From contig CM102287.1 in assembly GCA_046563655.1 (NCBI GenBank), positions 10,044,001 to 10,108,000 on the forward strand: a stretch of DNA of 64,000 bases, written 5' to 3'. Origin of the DNA: Yuukianura sp. NJ FZ-2021 (Eukaryota). The translations under genes and the position numbers were made by a program. The notes beneath the pieces were generated by a model. It did no database searches, was not told the DNA's origin, and saw only the letters and a program-made list of their open reading frames with translations. Shown here piece after piece: positions 4,100 through 61,829 of this stretch; position 1 is the stretch's first letter; every line of letters begins with the position of its first letter.

Positions 4100-7000
4100 G
4101 TCTTCACCAGTTTTCTGGATAAAAACCACTGCAGCTTGGCCAGGTCAAAGGTCAAGTGCCCCACCAACATTTTTTTTCAAAAATGGTGGCTCGGTGGGTG
4201 GGTCTGGTGGAGGGTGGGGCCGGGTGGAGCCGAAGGAGGGGAGTCGTAAGTGCACTTTATGAGATAAATGAGTCTAATACTTTCCCTTTCAATCTTAAAT
4301 CTCCTTCATCCATTCTCGTCCTAAATGGAATGGAGAGACGCATCTCGACAGATCATTTTTCCTCATCTTCCTCCAAACCTAACTTTAGCCTAACCTTAGC
4401 CTAACTCTAGCCTAATCCAACTCCTAAAACCTAACATAAAACCCAACATCCTAAAACATACTGACACAAGATAAACGCCCCAATCTCATTCCGCCTACTT
4501 TCTTTTCTTTTACTGCTTTCTACTTTCACTGCCTAAAAAAAGAGGAAACAAAAAAGTCACTTCTTCAAAATTCAACAAAAACAACTCATAGAAATTCAAA
4601 AAACTCCTTTTCGAAAACTTGCTAAAAAGTTGACTTTTTAGTACAAATCTCTCAGTTTGTGAAGCTTTTTTCAAAACCGTCCAATAATTTTAACTTTTCT
4701 AAAAACAAAATTTTGTGTCTTCCAAGATTGTACTTCAGCTTCGAACTACCTAAAAATGTCTTTTGTAGAACATTTTCAAAATGTCTTTTGTTTTTCAAAA
4801 TTTCTTGTTTTTTTTTGAAATTGGTGGTCCGTTTTGGAGAAATTGTTTTGTTCAAACATGTTCTAAATTTGAAATTGGTTTTGGCGGGCTTTTGTGACTT
4901 TGTAGCAGTGAATCCATAATCGTAAATCAAAGGGACTTTAGTGTAGTCACTGCGGGGGAGTCTGAAATGGTTTCATTTAGCCACAAATTAACCAATTAAA
5001 GTCCAACTTTCCACAATCCAGCAAGTCCTTACTTGGTACACTTTGGACAAACACTTTCTCCCCACAAAGGGGTCGAAGGGCCCCCCCCCCTTTGCACTGG
5101 AGGTGATTAATGACCCTTAATTCCCTGGTGGTAAACCAAGGAAATTGGTTTCCGAAGGGGTCCCCTCCCCCTTCTTTCATGTTTTTGATTAAGGGTCCCC
5201 CTACTCCTTGCTTGTTGTTTAAGGGTCCCCCTTGTGTAATGGTAAATTGAGCAGAAATGTATACAGTGAGCATGTAATCGAACATGTAATTGGCATAATT
5301 TTACAATTTAAACAACCCTGGGGTGCGAAAAGGGGTCAAGTGCAGAAAGGGGGCCCTTAAATGTTAAGGGCTCACACACATGTCAACTTTAGTTTATACA
5401 AAGGTCAAATCCCACTTAACCCTTCTATCAAAGTGTTGATCCCTGCAGCCCCTTCAGAACTGTCGCACAATGCCCCAGTCAAAATTGAAATTTTTTGAAA
5501 CTTGAAAACTTTGCGATTTTTGGTACAGAATTGTTCAGATTTTTCGTATTTTTTAAAAAGTGAGAGAAATTGAGTAGGAAAATGACTTTTTTCATTGAAA
5601 TTTTGAGTGATTTGTTTGAAATGTGTTTGTTGTGTCGGGAGTTGTTGGGAGGGCAGGCGTCGTGTGGGCCCTTGACTTCTTTTCGGCACCTCTTAAGGGC
5701 CCTCACAAGACACTTAAGGCCCCCTTTAGCCAAGGGCCCTTCCACTAGATTAAGCTTCCGCAAAACAGTTTCATTTTCCCTGTTACAAGTGTGTTAAGCT
5801 GAAACTGAGCCCTTACTTCCTTTGCAACTGACACGGCGCCTCACTATCTCTTGGTCAGACGAAAAGTGAGCCCTTAAGGGCCCTCCGTCACACGAATCAG
5901 CAAATTCAGGTCAATAGTTGACCCTGCTGACCTCACAAATTATTGCTGACCTTATAAAAATGCTTAAACGCCGGTTATTTTTTTCTACAAAAAGTGTATA
6001 ATAGATTTTGTTCTAAACAAGTTTGGATTTTCTCTTCGTTGATTTCATGAATGGATGGAAAATCCTTCAATGAAATATTTTGTTTTAAAAAACTTTTTTT
6101 AAAAAGTCTGTTTTAAAGAAGTGTTTGAAAAGAAGCCGGAGTCTAAACAAAATTTGAGTCTCTCATTCATTTCCGCCTCTTCCGGAACAAATAACGATCC
6201 ACTTTGTGTTTTAAACTGTTCTGTTCTAAATGGCACTTAGCTCTCTTAAAATCCCACTTAACTGTTCTAAAACCCATTCTGTTCTAAACAAATCTTGTTC
6301 TAAATCTTGTTCTAAATGGCACTTAAAGTGGCTCCGCTCTGACGAGTGGCAGCTCAAAATCCATTCAAATCATTCCAATCTCTTGCCAAATTAAATAAGT
6401 GCCCACTTAGCACCTTGCAAATTATGAAACACTCAAAAAAACATAAAAATCAACACCATCATCCAACAGTCAGCAACTTTTTTTTAACAAAAAACTGAAA
6501 TTTCGAATTTCATTTTTGACCTAAACAGATGCTGAGATGCTGTTTTAAAAAAAAACTCAGTTTAAAACAAATGTTGAAAGTCAGAAATCTCAATCTGGAG
6601 CAAATCTAACCAGAAAACAAAAATTTCTGTGAAATTTGGAACAAATTTTTCTTCGAATGGCGTTCGATTTTTAGAAGTTCAATTTTTGAAATTCGGAATT
6701 TAAAAAATTTTCTTTTGCTTTTGATGAGTCTAAGGTTAGAGGTCAAGTTTGGAAATTTCGAAAAACTAAAAAAAAACGGTTTTTTGAAAAGTAGTAAAAC
6801 GATATGAGTGAATTGAGTCTTAAGTTTTTTTTACAACTTATGAAGCCATGAAGTAGAGGGAAGGTCACGGGGTCAAGTGACAACGGAAGGACTTGAGTGT
6901 GTCTTTATTGGAATCCAGAGTAACAATGGACTTGGAAGGGCCCCTTTGGAATTGCGGCAATAATCGTAAAAAGGGCCCCCTCCTAAGGGCCCCCCTCATA

Positions 7001-7100: not shown

Positions 7101-8598
7101 TTCTCTTCTAAAAGCTTGTTCTAAACTTTTGTTCTAAAAGTTGTTCAAATAGAACAACTTCATCTGCAGAGATTTTCAAAATGGGTGAAATCCAATTCTA
7201 AAAATGTAAAACTGAGGAGCCAGAACTGGTTTAAGATATTTTCAACTTTTTTGAATTTTTGAACAAATTCAAAATGTGGACGCCTGTTTGAAAACGGCGG
7301 AGGGTGTGAAAATTAGTTGATAAAAAATGAAACTGATTCTGAGTATTTTCCATGATGATTTTCAAATGAACTTCATTTCTCTTGTTCTAAAATTTAAAAA
7401 AAGAGAGGGGAGAAAGAAGAAATAAAAAAGCGGGAGAAAGTAAAAGTGGAGAAAATTGAGAAATAAAAGAGTTGCCGGGGTTCGAATCCCGCGAGGGCCA
7501 TTTGGAGCCACTTTTTTCTTTTGCACAGAGAACGAAACGCATCATCAGCAGCATCAGCTACGAATGAAACTTTTTTAAAAAAAAAGAGAGCCCGCTTTCT
7601 CTGTTTTTAAAAAAGTGAAAGTCCCCTGATACACTTGGATTTCATCAGTACACTTCATGATTCTCTATTATTCAGGAAATAAACTTTTGCACTTTTCTCA
7701 AAGCACGAAAAATTCAATTTCATTTGAGTTTCGTTTTTTTTTAAACAACTTTTTTAAAAAAGGTTCACATTTTATTGCTTTACAACCCTACGCCCACTCC
7801 CAACCAAAGTGAAAATCTTGAAATCTCAATTAGCCCCGGGAATGATTCACTTAATTTAATTTACACTTTTAAAAAAATTCAGGATTTCAAAAAGTTTGAA
7901 AAATTTCAAGATTTCAAAAAGTTACAAAAATCAAAATTGTCATGATTTCAAAAAGTTGAGAAACGGAAAGTCGAATGAGGAAGGTGAACTTTCTTCTGCT
8001 CTAAAATCTTGACCAACACTTTTTGAAAATCTTGTTTGGATTTCAAAATTTTCAAAACAGTTGGTGGGTGGAGTAATTTTTTTTGGTTTTATGACTTTTC
8101 CGTGTGATAAGTGGATAATTTTGTTTTTAAGGGTTTCTCATTAAACCAAGATCATGTTCACTCATAAACTCATTTTCAAAATCCGGTTTTCTAAATTTGG
8201 AAATGACTTTTTTAGAAAATTGAGAACAGGGCACCAGATGAGCCTAATCCATCATGCCCAATTTAGATTCAATTACCACTTTCACGCCAAGTGTCTAAGG
8301 GAAGGATTCAAAGTGACCTCATGGGAATAAGTCCCCCCTTCAAATTTCTATAAGTCCCCCCCCCCTTAAACTAAAAAACGAAATTAACAAAACTGTCAAA
8401 ACACTTGACTCCCTCAGTGGATTTCGACAATCAATCATTCCCACCCTCCAAAATTTAAAAAAAGCTAAGATTTTTTTCAAAATTTAGACTAAGTTTTTAG
8501 TTTATTTTGACACTTTTGAAAATCTAGTTTCCAAATTTTGGAAAAGTTGAAATTTTGGAAATTTTGACACTTTTTGGAAGAGAGAGGCAGACTAGAGG

Positions 8599-35955: not shown

Positions 35956-37414
35956 ATTCCTTCCCCCCAAGCACCAGCAGTCCTTGGTTCAATTTTGACT
36001 GAAGCGGAATGTTAAGCACTTCTGGAACTGAGCGAGTCCAATGTCAGCATTCAGCAACAAACAGCACCCACTGGAATTTCAAAACAAAACAAAAAGTCAC
36101 AGTCTTGTTGTTGTTTCTCAGGAATCGTTATCCTAACGACGGTTGTCAAGGACGTTGCTTGGGGACTGAGATTACTTTTGTGCATTATGAGTATGACACA
36201 AGTTTTCCAAACATTTTTGGATTCTACACACGTTATGAGCTGCCTTTTGTTAGAGTAAATTGAAATGTTCAATCCAAAACACAGGAAACGGAAGTTAAAC
36301 TTAGAACGGCCATTGTACGGCACACAGAACAGTATGATTGTGGTTGTGAAAAGGCAAAAGGAGAGCAACGAAGAGCGATGACGATGACAGTGTCCAACCG
36401 ATTCGTCATGCGACACAGCTCAGCTTACCACCGTGACAAATCTGCAATGCATAAGATCTCGATGTCTATGAGATGATTATTATTGCTAAGGAGGACAATT
36501 GAACTTACTGGACGTTTCTCCAGTGACATCGATGTCTCCAGATTGGATTAATGAAAGACCCGTCGTCAATTGGTTCAATTAACTAATGAATTCAATTGTC
36601 CCTGTCCTAGTGTCATCAATTAACCAACCACCAACACCAACCAACAACAGAAACGTAACTGACTCACTCAGCAGGAGAGGAGCTGTTGACAAAACAAAAG
36701 TCAAATTCTTTGTGTTGATTAAAAAAAAAAGAATTTTCACACCTACAGAGTCTGACTAAAAGCTACCACAAGTGTGTCAAAGTCACCTTGCCTAACAGAG
36801 CTGGGCAAATAAACCTAAATAAACTTTTGATTTGTAAGTGATGAAATATTAAATAATTAAATATTTTTTATATATAAATAAATAAACAAATACTTAAACA
36901 TTTTAGGACTAATTATTATTTGAATTAAGTAGTTGTAAGTTTAATTGTTGACGTTTGACAGTGTCCACTTATGTTTGGTATGTGGGTGGTGGAGTGGAGA
37001 ACCTTTTGTCCAACTTGTTTACAGTGAAAGGAAATGCCATTGCGAAACACTTGTTTTGGCAACGACAAAACATAATTTTACAGTTGCAAAACATGTTTTG
37101 GAATGCCAATGTCTGGCTAACTGTAGTTGCAAAATTGCGAAACAACCGGCTTCAAATTCCGTCGTGCAAAAAGATAAAAAAAAAGTACTAAACTTGTTAA
37201 TTTTCTCAATTACTAATTAAATTGAAACCGATTTGCTAATTAACAGTCGATTTGCGTAAACATAAGTTGTTTTTTTTGAAAACGACAAGGGGCAAGTGTA
37301 GCAGCGAGTGTAAACTAGACCCCCCACTCCCTCCAGCTGACACTTCAACAATCATCGATTGTCAATTCCTTTGTGACGAGACGAGCTGTGTTAATTGGTT
37401 TAAGTTTTTACAAA

Positions 37415-38101
37415 ATGGCTACGTCTGAAGCTATGGAGGTTCAAGAGAAGATGCAAAAGGCAATGAAGGAAATGGTTAATGAACTGGACAAGTCAAGACT
37501 CAGGAAGATTCAGGTTAGCCAAACAGCATTCCGAGACAAAGAAAAATTACAGAAAAATTCTTGTCTACTTGCCTAATTGATTAATGGTTTTGGTGTTTCC
37601 AGCTACAAATGCATCAGTGTGCAGCCAAATGTTGTCAAAATGAATCCGCCAGCCTAGAACAAGCTCAGCATTGTGTCGAAAACTGCTCCACGACAGTCCA
37701 GGCAGCTCATAACTACGTTCAGCACGAGATTAGCCAATTCCAGGTGAACTTTGCACGAGACAAAAATACTTCTGCACATTACTTGAATAAGCTCTATAAT
37801 CTAATTGAAAATTATGCAGGAACGGATCCAGCGGTGTATTATGGACTGTCAAGACCGTGCTAAAGATCAACTGAGCCCAGATGCTTCAGACCGTGAAGTA
37901 TGTCTCCAAAGTTTATACAGACTACGAATGAATATTGTTTAATGTACACTGGAAGGAAATGATGACTGATGTTTAATTGAATAGGTGGAGAAGACAAAGT
38001 CACAGTTCGAGTCTTGTGCCATCAAGTGTGCCAATGACCACATAGCTCTAATTCCCAACTTAGTCAAGAAAATGCAAAAAGCCTTGGACATGATGAAGTG
38101 A
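37415..38101 (+). CDS. FAM136A: FAM136A-like protein; exons 37415-37513, 37603-37743, 37820-37897, 37985-38101
   Basis: LRKIQLQMHQCAAKCC...QHCVENC...FQERIQRCIMDCQD...FESCAIKCANDHI gives the twin-CX3C pattern of the family. Confidence 0.9.
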
Positions 38102-38875
38102 CAGACATCGGAGTCTAACCTCAGCCTTCGGTCAGACCATTTTGTTAATTAGTCATAATTTATCGTAATTATGTAGTGTTCCTCCACATTGAATTTCAAA
38201 CGACAGAACACACGTGACAAATTAAGCAGGTTAACGTCATTAACGTCAATTAAAATTCAAATGTCAATCACACTTTGGCCAAATAGCAAGATTAATTTTT
38301 TTTTGAATTTTCATTGTTTCGCTAGTCCCCGGCCCTAAAACGTTTATTTTTCGTCGACAAAGGGCTTAAATCTTTTAAGTTAAAAAGCATAACGTCATGT
38401 CCAAAAATTTTGTGGAATAATCAGTAATTGCTAGAAAAAATTATGAATTGTGCAAATTTTTGTCACAAGGTCGCCTTTTTTTATGCGAAGTTGTGCAGAG
38501 TTGAGTGTTTTTTAGTTTTCCCCTTGCGCATACACGAATAGAGTCCATGTGCGAATGCTTACTACGTGAAAGAATCATATGATTTCTTCTGGATTTACAA
38601 ATACAACGGTTCATATCCAGGCTAAGCAAGTTTTGTAGGCTAATCTGTCCACTTGAGCTTGTGCTCTCCGAGAGAACTGAACAACAACAGATAAAGGAGT
38701 AGTAAGTTAATCTAAATTTAACTTTTAACAATAATTACTTTTTTACCAGTCTCATTTTATAACTCGTAACTCTTTCTCTCACTTTCAGTTCCTCAAACTG
38801 TGTCACTTCATCAACACTCAACACTCAACATAAGCTGTGCACTTATAAAAGGAACTGCGACACTTTGATCAACGC

Positions 38876-42509
<3,634 letters not shown>

Positions 42510-42994
42510 TAGTCATGTCATAAACTTCGTACAGGTTATGTTCATGTAATTAGTTTGTTAATTGAATGTTACATTTAGTTCCAACTCCAAGTCATGTTCA
42601 TGATGCATTTGGAACATGACAAGTAAAGGAATATGTAATTGAACTGTGGATAAGCATTCGTCTTGTCAGTTTGTGTCTTTTGGCCTTGACGGAAGGGGAG
42701 GGACGAGACACTGGGTTTGTCCACGTTGTCACCCCTTTTCACCTTGTCACCTCCATTCAAGGTGTAGGCTAATGTTGGACTAGAAGGGAGGATGGACGGA
42801 GGTTGAATGGTCAGACGTCATCAAGATCTTGGACGACTTAGACGTGATCAAGAATCTACTGAAAAGTGTGCAGAGAACTGAGAACTGTAAGTTTTAAACC
42901 GGAAGTTTCGTTCACGTTAAGTGAGGTTCCTTTCCACGACGTTAATACTAACTTCATTTGATTCTATTTTTGACTTTAGAATTCGGATCATAAG

Positions 42995-43682
42995 ATGGCT
43001 CACCACAACCTGGACACATTCGCAATGCGTTTCCTTGAGTACAGGGGAAAGGTTAGGCCGCCCCTGTACGCCGTGATTAAGATGCTTGAAAAGCTGCAAG
43101 TTCATAACAATGTGGAGCTCATTAGCCGCCGAGAAGAAAGTCTTACCGGGATGATCAGTGCTTACAATCAATTAAGACAGAGAAAGGAGTGCGCAGGACT
43201 TGCAGGTTAATTAATACTCTCAATATGAAACGAGGCAGCTTTAGTAGGGAACACTTTATAATTTCTGTTCTTTGATTGTGTATTTTATTAGATGGGACTG
43301 ATCTCGAAGATCCATTGTCCACGAAGGAAGTGTCTGAGTGGATTCAATCCCTCATTCCCAAAATTAGATCAGCCCTGCGTGATTTTAAAAACAGTGAGGC
43401 AGGATGGGGCAACGTACAATTCCACAAGAAGATAGAAAATGGGGCCTTAGCAGTGGAAGATCCAAAGGGGCACATTGAGCTTTTGGGACGACTGTTCTGG
43501 GAATTAGATGAGTTTTGCGATGTCATAGTTGGTCCCGTTACTGGAGGTATGTCAATCTTTCCAGCATATCCTGTGATTGCCGCATGAATCTCATTGGTTT
43601 TGGTCCAAATTGCATGTTTAGCTTCAGTTTAATATATTTTGCATAATATATTTCAGTGGTTGAGCTTGTTCCGGAGGAGTGA
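42995..43682 (+). CDS. Uncharacterised protein, paralog A; exons 42995-43205, 43292-43546, terminal exon 43657-43682 (or 43810-43832)
   Basis: In-phase splice sites and clear similarity to the gene at 47392-48233. No recognised domain. Confidence 0.65.
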
Positions 43683-44061
43683 AATGCATGCTTCCCCCCC
43701 ATGACTCCATGGACGAACTATTTTACGCTCACTCTGTCCCTTTCAACTTATGACCTCAACCTTCTATTTTATTTGACCTTGATTTAGTTGACTGCTTTAT
43801 TTATTTTAGGTTCTGGTAGTCCTCGTCAGTGAAGGGCACCCACGGAAACCCACCTCCACCTCATGCCTTAAATTCTTCAAAAATACTAAATTCCAAAACT
43901 TCTAATGCCCATGTGTGCTGAATTTAGGGTGTCTGTAAGGTGTAAAACTTATTGAATTCGATACATAAAATAAATTATTTGCCAGAGACACTGTATTGAA
44001 TCTAAATTCTAAACTACTACATAATTCATTAAAAGTTCTTGTACTGCGATACTGCGAAAGT

Positions 44062-46188
44062 ATGAGTGACCCTCCTGTTGCACGGGGTCAACATTCGGAA
44101 GGAACGTCCACCAAATCCATGTCTGTATTTGTATGGCAACCTGGAGATTCGACCTTCCAGAACGGAGGTCATACAAAGGTCATTACTTTTCCAGCAGTTA
44201 CACTCGTAGTGGTAGCATTTGTGTTCATAGTCGTCGCTTTCTCCACTCCAGCTTGGCTCGAAACGGACGGAGAACTTCCGGAACGGGAACCAAAGTTCAT
44301 CAAAATCGGTAAGTTTCAATTTACGCATCCTATAATTAATTTTTTTTTTTGTGAATACTCAATTAATTCAAATCGCATTCATTGGTTAATTTCATCTTTG
44401 TTGCTCATTCAGGGTTGTGGGAAGGGTGCTTTGATCGTTTACAAGACGATGGACACCAGTACGACAACGTCATTACTGGATGTTGGTACTTATTGGCAGA
44501 GGAACTCTACCACCTCAACGACCTCATTTTTCAACGTAAGACCATTTTCCGCATCTAAAAATCAATGCTCGGTCCAGATCAATTTTAACCCATAACATAA
44601 GACGAGGTCAGGTCAATCGAAAACATCCACAATTCGTTTTTTTTTGTCAACAACCTGTCCGGCCCCACCCTCCTAGTATATCCATACCCATTGTTGTGCT
44701 TTTACTCTGTCCACATTCCATTCCACCACCCATTCACCTGTATACCTGTTGGTACCGTTGTTTGGATTCTACAGATCTTAAGCCCTATACCCACCGACGA
44801 CCCTCCCTGGGTCTTTCTCTGCAATTCCAATTTTAGAGCGAGTCATAAACAGTCGAAATGCACAACAAATTAAATATTTCACACCCTTTTCCAACGTTCT
44901 TAACGTTCCGCAATTAACAATTATGATTCAGCTCCATCTCTAACATGTTACTAATTCCGTGTGCAGTTTTTGAATTAAGGGAATTGTAATTCGTCGTAAC
45001 TCTCTTTTCTTGTCGAGTGACACTTCCAACCGTTTTTATCTCTGCAGTCACTCTTTGTCATCAGTCGAGGTGACAAGAGGTCAAGTAAGGTCGGATTAAG
45101 TCTAATTTAGTAATTTATTTTTAAAAAGTGGGATATTTTACTAGTACTTTTTGTTGAAAAGCGGATTTGGAAAGGTATGCATTCTTACCGTGCAGATTAC
45201 CCTGTCACTTTTCACCCTCACCGGACACATCCAATTCGGTCCATCATGATGGACGACTACTTGGACTCTTACAATCCCATTCGACGCACAATGTCCGGAA
45301 GGTGTGGCCTTGGAATCTTCGTCCTAGCTACACTTCTTATTACAATTGCCTTTTCTACCCCATATTGGCTCGAAAGTGACCCCAGAATTGTGGGCTCAAA
45401 GTTTGAAAAGCTTGGACTTTGGACGCATTGTTTTCGGTCCTTGCCGGACCCTTATGTCCAAACCCTCAATCGATTCTATTCTGGGTGTCGATGGATTTTT
45501 GATCCCTTTACAACAGGCTACTCCGAAATCCGTGGATTTTTGGTTCCACGTAAGAAACGTCTTTAAAACGTTTATGAAATTTCGAATATTTTCAAATTTT
45601 GAACCTTATGCTGTTACGATTGGAAATTATGGACATAATTTTGATCTGGACTGAGCAGGCTTCTTAATTTCAAAATCAATTTTCGAAATGTTTAAAATAA
45701 ATTTTTCTGTTTTCAGCTTTCTTCGTTGCAGTTCAATTTTTCTTTACGATTTGCTTCATTACGCTCCTCATGGTTTGCATCCTGGTGCCGATGTACTTGC
45801 TATGTTTCGGACCGGACCATCAGTACTACGTACTTCTCATCAAAGTCATCGGGATGATCCTCATCTTCTCAGGTTAGTCACAAAGTGATTCATAACCGAA
45901 ACCTAACTTTATTACTGTGATTTATTATTAATTTGTGTCTCTTTTTGTTGCTTTTTAGCATTCTTTGGGTCTGTGGCGGTGATTGTGTTTGGAGCAATGG
46001 GGGACAGCAGACACTGGATGCCTGACTGGCAGAACAACTACTTGTCCTGGTCATTTGCTCTGGCTGTTGTGGGGGTCGTTTGTGAATATGTGGCTGGGAT
46101 TTTATTTTTGGTCGAAGGCAGAGTTCAAGCTCGCAAGAGGAAACTACGTGAGTCTCAGTCGGCCTATACAATGGAGACGAAGGCCTGA
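44062..46188 (+). CDS. Claudin isoform A (Kune-kune-like N-terminal half); exons 44062-44308, 44413-44535, shared 45717-45872, 45959-46188
   Basis: TM1 followed by AFSTPAWLETDG..PKFIKIGLWEGCF..YDNVITGCWYLLAEELYHL, the claudin W-GLW-C-C signature. The phase-1 donor at 44535 fits the shared acceptor at 45717. Confidence 0.7.
45246..46188 (+). CDS. sinu: Claudin isoform B (Sinuous-like); exons ~45246-45549, 45717-45872, 45959-46188
   Basis: RRTMSGRCGLGIF...WLESDPRIVGSKFEKLGLWTHCFRSLPD...GCRWIFDPFTTGYSEIRGFL closely resembles Drosophila Sinuous. The start could be at 45177, 45246 or 45291. Confidence 0.88.
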
Positions 46189-47391
46189 CAAGAAGGGGAC
46201 TTAAGGGCTCCTCTGTCTCCAAGGACAAGACATGAACATGACGACGACCCTTCGGAGGACCCGCTTGATTTAACAATAGAAGTTCATCGTCCTATCAAAA
46301 CTGTATCTTCATCTCTGGTCACAGAACTGTAAAATGATCCATTCCAAAACTAATTTAATTAGATTGACGTAAGGCAGCTAACTTATACTGAAAAGTTTTT
46401 AACACAGGAATCTCATTTCAAAAAAATTCCGTCCTCTCTGTAACGTAATGACACTAAGAAGTACTTACTGTCATCCTATTTTGCTAAATGGACCCCCTAG
46501 CGATAATTAAGCAATTAAGTACCCTATTTATCCGGCACGACGTACTAAATTGACTTAAGTTTAACGTCGGACGGACGTTGATTCATATGGACCAAAAAAA
46601 AACAGGGTTAATTTTATTTTTCTAGGGACTGTCCCATTGTGTGCCGCTTTTTAGTTGTAAAATTGTAATTGTTGATGTGAGTAGATTTTTAATGGTTTAA
46701 TTTAGATTTAGGTCACACCATAACCCATAACTTATATCCAACAATTTATACTGCCAGTACTAGTTTACGTACCGCCACCGGTGACTAAGCTTTTGTAAAA
46801 CTTGAAGTTGTGTTAGTACTAATTTAAGCTTTAAAAGTGAGCTAACCTAATTAGTATTCCATCCATTTCTTTCACATTTTTGACACCTTCCCGGTATTTA
46901 TAATACTTTTATCATGCAAAAGTTTGAATTAATCAAAGGAAGCAATTATTACAGAATAAACTTAGCCTATTAAACGTTTATTCGACGGAATGTTAATGTT
47001 TGCTATAAAATTGACGCAAATATTCCACTATTTCTTTGTAGTAGTTAGACTTAAATTTTAATAACTTGGAGAATAACAATTGGCGCAATGTTTTAATGCG
47101 CGAAAATGTAAAAGAACGTTGCCACCAAGATCCCTCCATATCTCGAGCCACGTAGTGTAAAGGCCTTAGCCTAAGGCTAATGTTAGGAAGGGAGTTGTAG
47201 GGTCTCAGACGCCATCAGGGCCCTTTAGGAGCTTAACGTTCTCAGGAGTTTGTTAGAAAGTGGAAGGAGTATTTCCAGGAACGGTAAGAAAGTACATATT
47301 AAACCGGCAAGGTTCTAAGCTTCCTTTCAACGTGGTTACTACAGAAAAGTTACTTTTAACATTTTGAATTTAAGATTTTGTAGTTTGGACG

Positions 47392-48233
47392 ATGGCTGGT
47401 ACTGCTCATGTTGGCCATGATCCCTTCATGTTGTATTATTCAAAGTACAGAAAAAGAATCCGCCCGCTGTTGTACGCCCAAATCAAACTTTTGGAAAAAT
47501 TCAAAGTTAAAGAATGCTTCCAGAGGAAGGCTGCTCACATGCTGGACGATATGAGGGGATACTATAATCAATTGCGTGAATCGAGGACATGTATGAGACT
47601 CCAAGGTAAGCAGAAATATATTAAACTATTAAAGATTAATATATTTTGTTAAGTTATTTTACATTAACAATAACATGTGAAATTGTTAGCGTGAAAAGGT
47701 TTTTTGGTTATAAAAGCGAACTAGTCTGTTTTAGAAATTTTTTTTGAGTGACAAGACCTATGACAACCCAAAAAAACGGATCTACGGTAACTCCCGGAGG
47801 TCAGAGGTCAACTCAAACATTTCCCACGAGCCTTTCTTCGAGTTAACCAGAACAGACAAGTAAAAACAGACTAGATCGCTTTACTAAACCGGTTTTTGTG
47901 TTGCATTTCGCAGAGGACAAATGTTTGGAAGACGACGATCCTATGGAAATAGAACTGTACGATGATGTTGTTGACTTACATCATATATTGCAGATGCAGA
48001 TGGGCAAGGCTGTATGGAGGTTTCAAGATGACATGACACGTATTCGATTTCGAACATCAATACCGACAACACGTATTGATCGAGAAAACACTTTGGCTGA
48101 GGATGACCCGTGGGATCATTGTGAAAGAATGATGCGACAAATCGATGAATGGAAGAAGTTGGGCCTCAGCGGAATACGTCGGCACGCGGACCCATACGAC
48201 ACTCCATATACTACTGCAATCCGAAGCTTATAA
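47392..48233 (+). CDS. Uncharacterised protein, paralog B; exons 47392-47605, 47914-48233
   Basis: YRKRIRPLLYAQIKLLEK...YNQLRESRTC aligns with paralog A (YRGKVRPPLYAVIKMLEK...YNQLRQRKEC). The intron position and phase are the same. Confidence 0.7.
47706..47890. mobile_element. Small MITE-like element in the intron of paralog B
   Basis: Inverted ends aaagcgaactagtctgtttta (47713-47733) and aaaacagactagatcgcttt (47863-47882). Confidence 0.55.
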
Positions 48234-48998
48234 GCTTCTAGTCTTAAGTGTCGCCGTGGGTTGGGGATCATTGGTTTGAGTGTTGGGGTTTGAGTAAACA
48301 AAAGATGGATCCACTCTTCCACTGCACTAGGGTCTAAAATAAACACAATTAAAATAATAGAAATCTGTAAATTTAACCAGACTTTAACCGGCGGAGGAAT
48401 ACAAGAATTTTGATACCTTGTATGCCAAGATTAATTGACGCATAATTAAGTTAATTGAGTTTAAAGGTGGAACTAGTTTGCACTAAACTCCGTTTAACTT
48501 TAACCTGCAATGGTCGAACTGGCCATTAAACGGGTTAAGTTATTTGAAGTTTGACTCTATAGAATACCCCGCCATGCTCTTCCGCAGGTTTCAATACGTT
48601 GCTTGCCCTTCTACGTCGATCCTACGATTTTTGCGCTTTTAAGAGTTGCACCAATTAAAAATGACGCTTTCGGTGCGTTAAAGCAGAGGGAAACTTAAAC
48701 TAAAAGGGGTCTAGACATTAAACATTAAATGAGAATTTAGCCATTTAGCCAAAAGAGGAGGGGAAAATGAGAAATTGAATACACTTACCCTATTTAAACC
48801 TTTATTCTACGGAATGTTAATGTTTGTCTTTACAATTCTACTTGAGTATAACGCGGATTTTTCTGTAGAAAGTGGAATATTTTAGCTTGAGTGGGTAGAC
48901 TAGTTCATGCAAGTGTCGAGCATGGGAAGTTCCCGTTCGTATCGCCTTGGATCTGCGCCATCTTGGATTCGGCTGAATTAGGAACTTCGCTTAATTTT

Positions 48999-58893: not shown

Positions 58894-59948
58894 ACATAGA
58901 CTAAGAACTGTAAAGTATTTAAGAGCTTTCAGGAGAGAAGAGACAAAGGTTAAACCTTGACCCTGCACAGAGGTCACTTCAAGGGTCAAGTCACCGTCCC
59001 AAGGTCAATGTCAAGGTCAATGTCACTTGCTTTTGGAAGTTGGAGTTCCTCTCAGTTTAAGTAGCGAGTCACGTTTTCTAATTTATTTTGACACCAAATG
59101 AAGCGCCACTTCCAACACACGTAGAATCGCTGAGCGATTGTACAGCCGTGTTCGTATGTTTTGTGTTTAGAAAAAATGTTTTGTGAAAGTTTACCATTTG
59201 TAAGGTGAAATAGTACCAAAATAGTGAATTCCTAGGTGATACTATTAGTTTAGTTAATTTTAACGTAGGTGTGACGTTAAGGTTAACTTTACCATTACAT
59301 TTGTTTAGTGTAATTAACTTAACAAAGGAGGTTAAGTTAAACGCAGATCCGCAGTTGGTGTTTAGATTAAGAAAACTTTGTAAATACACGAAATTTTTAG
59401 GTTCCATCGCATGGTTTTTAGAAACAGACGCACCTTGAGCACATATTTTTCTTTGTTGTGAACTAGACCCACCAATATTTTGAAATTTAAGTTTTTGAAA
59501 AATTGTATTTTGGAAAATTTCGACTGAAGGGATAAGATGGCTGAGGAAGGGCAAAGATTGAAGCAAGAGGAAGAAAATACTTTTTATATTTTTTATTTTG
59601 AAACTATTCTTCTGAGATGTATTTAACAAAGTAATTATTACAAAAATTATGTAATAAGTTAATTGAAAACAAGTTAATTACCGTAACCTTGCTCCTCGTC
59701 GTCATGCTTTTTATCATGTCCAATTCCAATTGATTAACTAAATTGAGAAAGTGCCCGGAGTTGACCTTGTGATCATCACGCTAATTCAAGTTGCAAATTT
59801 AGTTTAAAGTTGGGTAAATTGTAATTAAAATGTAATTTTAGCTAAGGTAATTACTACTCAATCAGTGGAACGTCAATGTGTAGTAAATAAATTAGTTAAA
59901 AAAAATGGACAAACAGGAATTACGAACAAGTTTTTTTTTATTGCGAAT

Positions 59949-61829
59949 TTACGACGTTGTAGTTTCAGGCTGTGCTGGCGCTTGTGCTGGATCTGAGCGA
60001 GCGTATCCCGAGTATCTGCAAACCAAAACTCAGATTTAGTTTTAAAACATTGTGAGTTTTTAGGTTTTACTTTTGACAACTTAATACAAAAAAATAAGCA
60101 AAAATGAAATTGAAATTGTGAGTGAAAATACTTTGACGCCACATGAATAATTAAAAATATCATATATAATAAAAATGGACAAAATGCATAAGGCGAATTA
60201 TTTTTAATTTTAGATGGCGTCAAAACTAACAAAAAACTTTTATAATTTTTCAAAAGAAAAGTTTAACATTTTGAACTTTGCAGCGATTTCTATGGCTCAA
60301 GCGATCGGTTCAACATGAAGAACAACATTCGAAACTGTCGGAGTTGACAGGAGATTATACGAGTTAAAAAGGTTCCTCTCACTCCCTCTACTTTTCCCGC
60401 AACTCCAACTCCAATACAAAAAGCACTACAAGAGGAACCTCCCTATCTGCCTCTTTGCTCCGTATAATCTCCGATCAACTTTTCTGCTCTCTTGAATGCT
60501 TCCCGTGTAAAACACTCTTTCCAAAACACACCAAATCTTCCTCATTGTTCTAAATTTTTTAAAATTCAACTTTGCAGCGATTCCTGCGCTTCCATCGCTG
60601 GAATCAAGTTGCACAATAACATCTTACATAAAGTTGAGACAAAAAATGTTCAAAAAAACATCTCCAAATTTTTTAAATGCAGCCTTTTTTGAAAAAATTT
60701 AAAAAGCTTACTCAAAATGTTCTGGCTTGGTGACCTGGATAGGATTTCCATTCTGGAGGTAACCCATCGGTCGTGACTTGAAAATCGGTCGTCTACTGCC
60801 CGATTCAAGGCCAAGTCCACGTCCTTCATGGTCTGACGTTCCTTCAGCTTCAAGGCCATCCTGATTGATCATCAAAATTCCAAAATTTTAAAATTTTAAT
60901 TTATGAAATCCTTCTTAAAATTTTGAAACAGTTTACCCGAGCATATGCATAGTAGTCAAAATGAGCTGGCGGTTTTGGTGGGGCGGCGGCTGCCCCACCT
61001 TTGTCCTCCATTTCCACCACAGTGTTTGATTGGACAACGGAAGTTCCGGTGGGAACAGTTTGCGTTACGATGGGATTTGGAAGTGGGGCTGGTTGTTGCT
61101 GGTATACTTGTGGCAGTACTGCTTGCACCACCCCCTGATTGGGGTAAAGTACTTGGGCAGTATTTGGCACCGTGGCGGTCGTCGTCTGAGCTGAAGTCAC
61201 CGTGGATCCTGATAGCAGTTGTGGAACTCCTACGCCATTCATGGTCTGAGGAGCTGAAATTTCGGAAGGAAATGTTAAAAACTTCCAAATTTCCAATACC
61301 CAAATTCAAAATTTTGAAAAATTATGAATTTAAAGTTCGAAAAAGTTTTCAGACTTGAAATTAAGAACAACCTTGACTGACGCTGTATGAAAAATAAGAA
61401 AACGCAGAAATGAAAAACTATATAGAAAATACATAGGCCGAATTATTAAAAATTTTAACTGGCGTTAAACCAAGTCATAAAAACTGATTTTGCCAAACTT
61501 TTTTTTGAGCTGAATTTTGCAGCACTTTCTGTTAATCAGGCGTAAGGTTCAAGTTACAGGGCATCATTTCACATAATTTTGAAATTCCAATTCCAAAATT
61601 CAAAATTTCAAAACTTACAAGAGTAGTAGGGTTGTTGAAATTGCATTTGCATGGGAAACCCGAACTGATTTCCTATTCCGTATTGTTGCCCAATTCCATA
61701 CTGTTGGCCCATGTAGGGATAAGTAGTTGCATACATAGGGTATGTTCCGTAGCCATACTGCTGTGGGTAGTAGTAATTGGCAAACTGAGCACAACTAACG
61801 CCAACCAAGCCAAGAATGAGTAGCAACAT
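59949..61829 (-). CDS. Secreted low-complexity Q/Y/G/P/T-rich protein; exons 61619-61829, 60937-61253, 60712-60860, 59949-60015
   Basis: Signal peptide MLLLILGLVGVSCA, YYPQQYG and GQQYGI repeats, and four exons joining in frame through GT-AG introns. Confidence 0.75.
60131..60625 (-). mobile_element. Interspersed repeat, copy 2 (same family as 28175-29145), intronic
   Basis: Reverse-complement similarity to 28180-28480 and 29055-29145. Confidence 0.75.
61371..61572 (-). mobile_element. Interspersed repeat, short copy 3 (same family), intronic
   Basis: The reverse complement acgccagttaaaatttttaataattc...tatttttcatacagcgtca matches 29055-29139. A degenerate tgtaacttga...gctgcaaa module is also present. 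Confidence 0.65.

Follow-up and report, generated by a model that had tools for sequence, protein, structure and literature searches.

A springtail claudin locus predicted to join alternative Kune-like and Sinuous-like 5' modules to one shared back half

Background

It is already known that a claudin gene can possess alternative first exons, and claudin-18 is among the genes that use them. In CLDN10, the alternative exons 1a and 1b specify the first transmembrane segment (TM1) and the first extracellular segment, and confer opposite charge selectivity (PMC6862131). In Drosophila, three claudins are known to be needed for septate junctions and for tracheal tube size; Kune-kune and Sinuous are among them, and each is required alone. 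CG1298 (kune-kune) is the closest Drosophila relative of Sinuous, with 35% identity (Wu et al., PMC2172325, for both statements). Here we describe a locus at positions 44062-46188 of a 64-kb stretch of the genome of the springtail Yuukianura sp. NJ FZ-2021 (GCA_046563655.1, contig CM102287.1, positions 10,044,001 to 10,108,000; hereafter the window). It is likely to be a single claudin gene with two heads, that is, two alternative 5' coding modules, one of Kune type and one of Sinuous type, on a common back half. What is new is the occurrence of this arrangement in an arthropod and the link that it makes between kune and sinu; judged by the available listings and abstracts, no published account of a two-headed arthropod kune/sinu claudin gene was found.

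The locus resembles CLDN10 in that one claudin gene has two alternative first coding exons whose loops differ strongly in charge (PMC6862131). It differs from it in that CLDN10 is a vertebrate tight-junction claudin without specific orthology to the present gene, whose function as an anion or cation pore has been measured, and in that an intron interrupts head A here and each head has its counterpart in a separate essential insect gene. The likeness to Drosophila sinuous lies in head B and in the tail ...E-T-K-A, both of which match insect sinuous/sinu proteins; by contrast, the dipteran RefSeq isoforms differ only by a short N-extension, and no A-type head was seen on an insect Sinu. As in kune-kune, head A groups with insect Kune-like proteins (P0092, P0093 and the front exons of Choristoneura models), but these proteins have a back half of their own (support 96/95) and an S/T-x-I/V end, neither of which is found here.

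Results and discussion

Exon anatomy

The locus comprises five exons on the + strand, all with canonical GT/AG borders (a slash marks the border below). Exon A1 (44062-44308, 247 nt) opens with the ATG at 44062 and encodes a cytoplasmic N-tail with the conserved motif KSMSVFVW, TM1 and the start of the first extracellular loop (loop 1), which begins WLETDG...PKFIKIG; it ends at a phase-1 donor, G/GTAAGT. Exon A2 (44413-44535, 123 nt) follows the acceptor ...CATTCAG/GG, encodes the remainder of head A loop 1 (LWEGCF...GCWYLLAEELYHLNDLIFQ) and ends at a phase-1 donor, C/GTAAGA. Exon B (45177-45549) is the alternative head, with a Sinuous-type TM1 and loop 1 and again a phase-1 donor C/GTAAGA. 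The shared exon C1 (45717-45872, 156 nt) encodes TM2, a short intracellular loop and TM3; its acceptor is strong (TTTTTCTGTTTTCAG followed by CT) and no other acceptor would leave a four-TM frame with either head. The shared exon C2 (45959-46188) supplies loop 2, TM4 and the cytoplasmic tail ...SAYTMETKA, and closes with a TGA stop at 46186-46188. Exons A2 and B each leave a single C, so that the CT opening C1 gives CCT (Pro) with either head, and in-silico splicing yields open frames of 251 aa for the A form and 229 aa for the B form counted from the ATG at 45246.

The locus belongs to the claudin/PMP22/EMP superfamily. With the Pfam profile Claudin_2 (PF13903; 192 positions, gathering score 29.1 bits), exon B scored 58.5 bits (E 1e-15, profile positions 1-81) and exon C2 48.2 bits (profile positions 134-192), and spliced head A matched full-length family members (BLASTP E 3e-24 to 1e-10). 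A hydropathy scan found four strong TM segments per form, together with a borderline stretch at 95-113 (1.67) abutting TM2 in the B form. The first extracellular loop has 62-64 residues, and W...GLW..C...C is present in both heads. Their loops differ in net charge: -9 for head A and +1 for head B in the window, -5 and +2 for the corresponding heads of the springtail Allacma fusca, and -6 for head A of Penaeus.

Two 5' exon sets, each with a start codon, TM1, loop 1 and the same donor phase, thus lead into one common exon, which is the anatomy of claudin-10a/10b. The preliminary description of this DNA had proposed tandem TM1 and loop-1 modules with phase-1 C/GTAAG donors that complete one shared Pro codon, and a single TM2-TM4 half; the exon model on the + strand bears out the former, and the latter agrees with a tblastn search of the whole 64-kb window with six claudin-like proteins, in which no second TM2-TM4 half was found (E <0.005). 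Weaker tblastn matches at 48111-48209, 59514-59702 and 60258-60341 were set aside, the open reading frames (ORFs) at these positions not being claudin-like.

We propose that this would be one springtail gene with two alternative 5' coding modules, head A (two exons, of the Kune lineage) and head B (one exon, of the Sinuous lineage). The phase-1 donor of each head would join the same acceptor at 45717, giving two four-TM claudins that differ in TM1 and loop 1. The choice between them would be made by alternative promoters, with each transcript splicing its last head exon to C1; two promoters are the simplest arrangement because head B sits within the A2-C1 intron and, with a donor of its own, can do without an acceptor. 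That the locus is one two-headed claudin gene, with predicted A and B isoforms on a shared back half, is in our judgement the likely reading of these exons.

Conservation and selection among springtail loci

When metagenome contigs were scanned with an alignment of C2, 11 loci were recovered, of which four are springtail-like (L001-L004). The named proteins nearest to those of the window come from two springtails, Allacma fusca and Orchesella cincta. As L001 and L004 open only with exon B, they are uninformative on head A. In L002, the exons follow one another in the same order and phases as in the window (A1 5961-6234, A2 6318-6440, B 7307-7610, C1 7733-7888, then a C2 split by an extra intron), and the Allacma model P0003 (361 aa) reads head A, head B and the shared half in tandem as one chain, A1 corresponding to its residues 1-83. 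The layout is not a matter of chance, as judged from the sequences: the five exons recur in order and phase both in L002 and in P0003. Identity between the window and L002 is 60.7% in A1 (aligned at L002 5994-6239), 88% in A2 (aligned at L002 6314-6439, with the same length of 123 nt and the same donor) and 93% in C1 (with the same length of 156 nt); A2 is 83% identical to that of Allacma. The additional intron in C2 of L002 (8030-8101), which the window lacks, splits the Trp codon before MPDWQNN.

Silent sites are saturated between the window and L002 (proportion of synonymous differences, pS, 0.64-0.78). At this distance head A is identical at 87 of 122 aligned residues (71%), with a proportion of nonsynonymous differences (pN) of 0.21 against a pS of 0.78, and in L002 it has no stops or frameshifts and keeps its internal intron, its splice sites and its phase-1 donor. 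With Allacma, head A is 60.6% identical over 109 aligned residues. For head B the corresponding comparison with L002 gives 92 of 102 residues identical and dN/dS 0.056, and for the shared half 116 of 127 and dN/dS 0.023. By these measures head A is under purifying selection, and the suspicion, raised in the preliminary description as a check on its own proposal, that this module might be evolving neutrally did not hold. A transcript-like 918-nt contig of another springtail-like organism (P0001) encodes head B with the shared half.

Relationships of the heads and the shared half

Relatives were collected by a HMMER search with the shrimp A-type protein P0004, of which the best 150 of 482 matches were considered, and by a search with exon B, which gave 82 relatives among 154 candidates. 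Three of these 82 are named sinuous or sinu (the Lycorma 'claudin family member sinuous', a Euwallacea protein and the Chelonus 'sinu'). Trees of the heads (TM1 and loop 1) and of the back halves were built separately.

Head B falls with the named sinu proteins in a starred clade in both head trees (99/97 in one; 100/95, with 21 rows, in the other). The other springtail B heads belong there too, as do B-type proteins of krill and isopod and one protein of a pseudoscorpion. The A heads of the window, L002 and Allacma come together with Kune-like proteins of insects, with a support of 97/92 (starred) in one tree, where the clade has 10 rows including spider and scorpion, and of 81/82 in the second. 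The insect groupmates are a 264-aa protein of Drosophila setifemur (P0092), a hymenopteran 'claudin' (P0093), an aphid protein and the Choristoneura front exons, and the best matches of head A outside springtails are the hymenopteran 'claudin' (50.6%) and the D. setifemur protein (44%). In approximately unbiased (AU) tests, an exclusive clade of springtail A heads and insect Kune-like proteins was not rejected (p-AU 0.47, at a cost of 0.17 log-likelihood units). The two resemblances first read from motifs, of module A to Kune and of module B to Sinu, are both recovered by the trees, the former to the extent that the insect proteins concerned are Kune.

No source names P0092 and the allied insect proteins kune, and in the protein atlas P0092 belongs to claudin-family clusters that do not carry that name. 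We infer that they are Kune orthologues because CG1298 is the closest relative of Sinuous and P0092 is the best Drosophila non-Sinu match among the matches listed in the P0004 search, being 38% identical to a fly-like Sinu. The length of Kune, which we take to be 264 aa, is that of P0092.

The shared half inclines to the back halves of insect Sinu proteins (91/90 and 81/84, neither starred), and its tail ...SAYTMETKA resembles the insect ...E-x-E-T-K-A. It stands outside the Kune-like back-half clade, although placing it there gave p-AU 0.31; the three AU tests on springtail back-half placement (p 0.45, 0.31 and 0.44) rejected none of the positions. The mixture of Sinu-like and Kune-like motifs that had been read into this half is, in the trees, a leaning to Sinu more than an even mix. 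From head B, and probably from the back half, the locus would be the orthologue of sinuous. It is not a kune gene, and only head A is of Kune type, because the window contains just the one back half, the shared half lies outside the Kune-like clade and the normal stop leaves ...ETKA. Anatomy, conservation, selection and the placement of the heads together argue for a claudin gene with a variable N-terminal and a constant C-terminal half, as had been suggested at the outset.

Age of the two-headed layout

In insects, the back halves of Kune-like proteins fall in one clade (96/95) and those of Sinu in another (100/99), so insects have two full genes. The crustacean records have a different pattern. 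Malacostracan back halves make up one starred clade in which A and B forms are mixed (98/99; 99/98); the B-type protein P0305 of Armadillidium vulgare matches decapod A-type proteins at 71-76% identity in the back half, and its cytoplasmic tail is almost the same as theirs. The grouping in which the back half follows the head type was rejected (p-AU 0.0004 and 0.006). A further lineage repeats the mixing, the B-type P0079 falling with the A-type P0094 and P0253 (98/97).

Decapod A-type proteins are annotated by RefSeq as 'isoform X2/X3' in 8 species and as 'sinu isoform X1' in Panulirus ornatus. As in the springtail, decapod loci such as Penaeus vannamei LOC113827154 (isoform X2) and that of P. 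ornatus have an A-type head on a Sinu-like back half, with the tail ...FTLEGTKA, and the sister back half is found on B-type proteins of isopod and krill; unlike the springtail locus, these are uncharacterised records of automatic annotation whose A heads do not resolve with springtail and Kune heads. A form in which an A head is followed directly by such a back half is seen only in crustacean records. In decapod genomic ORF fragments, similarity is lost at the A1/A2, A2/C1 and C1/C2 borders of the window. Both head types occur in chelicerates.

The one-gene, two-headed state is probably old within Pancrustacea, as far as these sequences reveal; an old two-headed gene is favoured because the malacostracan and P0079 lineages mix A and B back halves, because of the RefSeq isoforms and because of the shared exon borders. 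More tentatively, the two-headed gene may represent the ancestral pancrustacean, possibly arthropod, state, from which the insect duplicates would each have kept one head, and the TGA-C readthrough described below would give the springtail gene four forms. On this account, insects would later have duplicated the gene, and the two copies would have become kune and sinu; this step is the less certain part.

Several observations weigh against a two-headed gene or against its presumed age and use. The A exons alone fall under the Claudin_2 threshold (A1 21.7 bits; A2 no match). In no database protein is a springtail head A followed at once by the shared half; P0003, the sole springtail model with head A, contains A, B and the shared half. 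A word-index search with the Allacma A region returned the query itself only (1 of 24 candidates). For Drosophila sinuous (CG10624), a single 247-aa isoform was reported from 11 cDNAs and 5' rapid amplification of cDNA ends (PMC2172325). Decapod A heads do not resolve with the Kune clade, the clade of all A heads having a support of 30/25, so that the orthology of decapod and springtail A heads is at most putative. No decapod B-type isoform was found among the matches listed, and the crustacean evidence consists of protein records and genomic ORF fragments. The groups submitted to AU tests were named after the trees had been inspected. Septate-junction claudins have been argued to act in cis and to be unlikely to form charge-selective pores (PMC4582180), so that any meaning given to the difference in loop charge would be conjectural. 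Finally, the springtail back half lies with Sinu (91/90) and the Kune-like back halves lie apart (96/95), which would also fit an old separate kune that lost its back half.

This last point leads to the strongest alternative, in which the ancestor had kune and sinu as two complete tandem genes, with kune upstream. Springtails and, separately, some crustaceans would then have lost the kune back half, and the kune front exons would now splice into exon 2 of sinu. In the moth Choristoneura fumiferana, the models P0220 and P0260 run from Kune-like exons into sinu exons lying downstream, and imply therefore that kune and sinu stand there in tandem, in this order and with one orientation; the springtail shared half is placed nearest insect Sinu (91/90, 81/84), and the Kune-like back halves form their own clade (96/95). 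However, the same deletion would be needed at least twice, or three times if springtails, Malacostraca and the P0079/P0094 lineage are all counted. Moreover, a clade of insect Sinu and Kune-like back halves was not rejected (p-AU 0.44), and a faster evolution of Kune back halves after duplication in insects would give the same tree. We therefore regard a lineage-specific fusion as unlikely, yet as an explanation to be taken seriously. The Choristoneura models, like the 467-aa Anopheles epiroticus model P0010, are gene-model fusions and thus annotation errors, useful for gene order; in P0010, the partner joined to sinu is a paralogue from a different subfamily that lies downstream.

Should springtails and crustaceans indeed make both proteins from one two-headed gene, the non-redundant part of Kune and Sinu would be narrowed to the head, that is, to TM1 and loop 1. 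The locus would then be a natural case of alternative isoforms becoming paralogues, and a datable case in which the use of alternative first exons trades off against gene duplication. The claudin-10a/10b design, with one back half and two loop-1 heads of different charge, would have arisen either independently or very early in animals. Decapod RefSeq annotation already contains the A-type isoforms, without comment.

Start of head B

Module B had been described as extending from 45246 to 45549. Its end is confirmed; its start is not, as the conserved frame reaches upstream to 45177. Ahead of 45246, the open frame of head B continues with a conserved peptide, [YF]R[AV]DYPV[TS], which is kept in the window, L001, L002, L004, Orchesella cincta P0187 and Allacma (N-extension at 45177-45245 in the window, 7244-7306 in L002, ~25-93 in L004 and ~21-65 in L001). 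This N-extension is coding, because the codon changes in it are synonymous (CGT/AGG for Arg, GAT/GAC, CCT/CCG/CCC). A Met opens the N-extension in the window (ATG 45177), in L001 and in Orchesella, where P0187 starts at the equivalent residue. Head B thus probably starts at ATG 45177, the ATG at 45246 being the second in-frame Met pair. In L002 and L004 there is ATT or ATA in the place of this Met, preceded by CAAA, and no in-frame ATG is in view, which suggests non-AUG initiation or an unseen upstream exon in these two loci.

Between A2 and B, the sole match to the arthropod initiator consensus is TCAGTC at 45061-45066 on the + strand. The corresponding interval of L002 also has one match (7235), with ~0.3 expected by chance per 700 nt. 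The motif may be taken as a weak candidate, and a hint only, for an internal promoter of head B.

Alternative readings of the springtail heads

Inside exon B, an AG at 45195-45196 stands in phase 1, and the wobble base of the Ala/Val codon before Asp is A in all 4 springtail loci examined, so that the AG is kept. This AG could be a cryptic or a real acceptor. If real, A2 might splice to it in frame, so that both heads would be translated in one protein. The Allacma model P0003 (361 aa) is built in this manner, and the phase-1 AG stands at the same codon position in 4 of 4 springtail loci. The product, however, would have five hydrophobic segments, so that head B and all that follows it would be oriented wrongly for a claudin; the junction in Allacma misses the AG of the window by one codon, which looks like a position picked by the predictor within an open frame; and Orchesella P0187 and the transcript-like P0001 start at head B. 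We consider a two-headed protein improbable, and the combined A and B form of Allacma probably an artefact of prediction.

It is very improbable that head A is the relic of a dead upstream kune, decaying and not expressed with the locus. In keeping with a relic, no transcript or protein record joins springtail head A directly to the shared half, and the polyA-like signal of the upstream ORF (43969) is only ~90 nt from ATG 44062. Yet head A keeps its frame, both donors, its acceptor and 71% identity with L002, is conserved in Allacma, and has a donor phase that matches C1 in both genomic loci (window and L002). Head A is not a decaying relic because its frame, internal intron and phase-1 donor have been kept at saturated silent divergence.

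Scarcely any weight can be given to a recent springtail-specific duplication of head B that produced head A, with its Kune likeness due to convergence: A and B do align over TM1 and loop 1 with ~37-40% identity, and a grouping of springtail A with the whole B clade was not rejected (p-AU 0.16), but a clade of springtail A and springtail B was rejected (p-AU 0.00035), the intron of head A at G/LWE is not in head B, and decapod ORF fragments share the A1/A2, A2/C1 and C1/C2 borders.

Candidate stop-codon readthrough

We turn to the 3' end of the locus. Each of the 5 springtail loci (the window and L001-L004) has a C directly after its TGA stop codon, and the frame beyond it remains open. In the window, the extension on the + strand (46189-46332; 47 codons) ends ...SSSLVTEL before a TAA, and is a candidate readthrough tail with a PDZ-ligand-like end. 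Counted from the stop, the readthrough runs lie at 46186-46332 in the window, 1139-1246 in L001, 8271-8423 in L002, 307-525 in L003 and 1457-1744 in L004, and the in-frame open runs are 47, 35, 49, 72 and 95 codons long, respectively. The extensions end, in the same order, in VTEL, VTML, VTSL, VTTL and STEI, all of the form T-x-L/I. A run of the same or greater length was obtained in 242, 390, 655, 34 and 59 of 5000 shuffles, respectively. The other two frames are mostly closed, the exceptions being runs of 56, 54 and 51 codons in L002 and L004. The last 15 residues of the extension are almost identical between the window and L002, and the remainder has drifted. G+C is 0.47-0.56 in the extension vs a window mean of 0.38, and the database proteins P0002, P0005 and P0116 carry W at the position of the TGA.

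With its leaky stop context and conserved extension, the locus is a candidate for conserved stop-codon readthrough. It is alike in both respects to the conserved readthrough genes of Drosophila and Anopheles (Jungreis et al. 2016, PMC5100048), which combine a TGA-C stop with a conserved open in-frame extension. In two of the three supplementary files of that article, sinu, CG10624, kune and CG1298 were not found, nor were sinu and kune in the main text of PMC13278127. The C-terminal end of Sinu is regarded as a PDZ site by Wu et al. (PMC2172325). Kune-type proteins end natively in S/T-x-I/V; here a T-x-L end exists only beyond the stop. A search of Rfam over 43000-48000 (E up to 1) gave no match, and therefore no element like a selenocysteine insertion sequence (SECIS) or other known RNA, and the RNA fold of 46180-46300 was no better than that of shuffled sequences (z +1.49).

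Flanking regions

Upstream of the claudin locus lies a multi-exon gene for UTP-glucose-1-phosphate uridylyltransferase (UDP-glucose pyrophosphorylase) at ~37400-42530 on the + strand, one exon of which matches the Pfam family UDPGP with E 1.7e-36; this gene is syntenic with L002 1-5540. The flanks at 42530-44060 and 46340-48775 (~1.5 and 2.4 kb) are present in the window and not in L002. No Pfam family was found for the ORFs at 42980-43210, 43276-43587 and 47374-47652 in these flanks. A faint resemblance (48.6% over 35 residues) links one ORF of the first flank (42998-43102) to one of the second (47404-47508). Owing to the first flank, only ~90 nt separate an AATAAA at 43969 from the ATG of head A at 44062.

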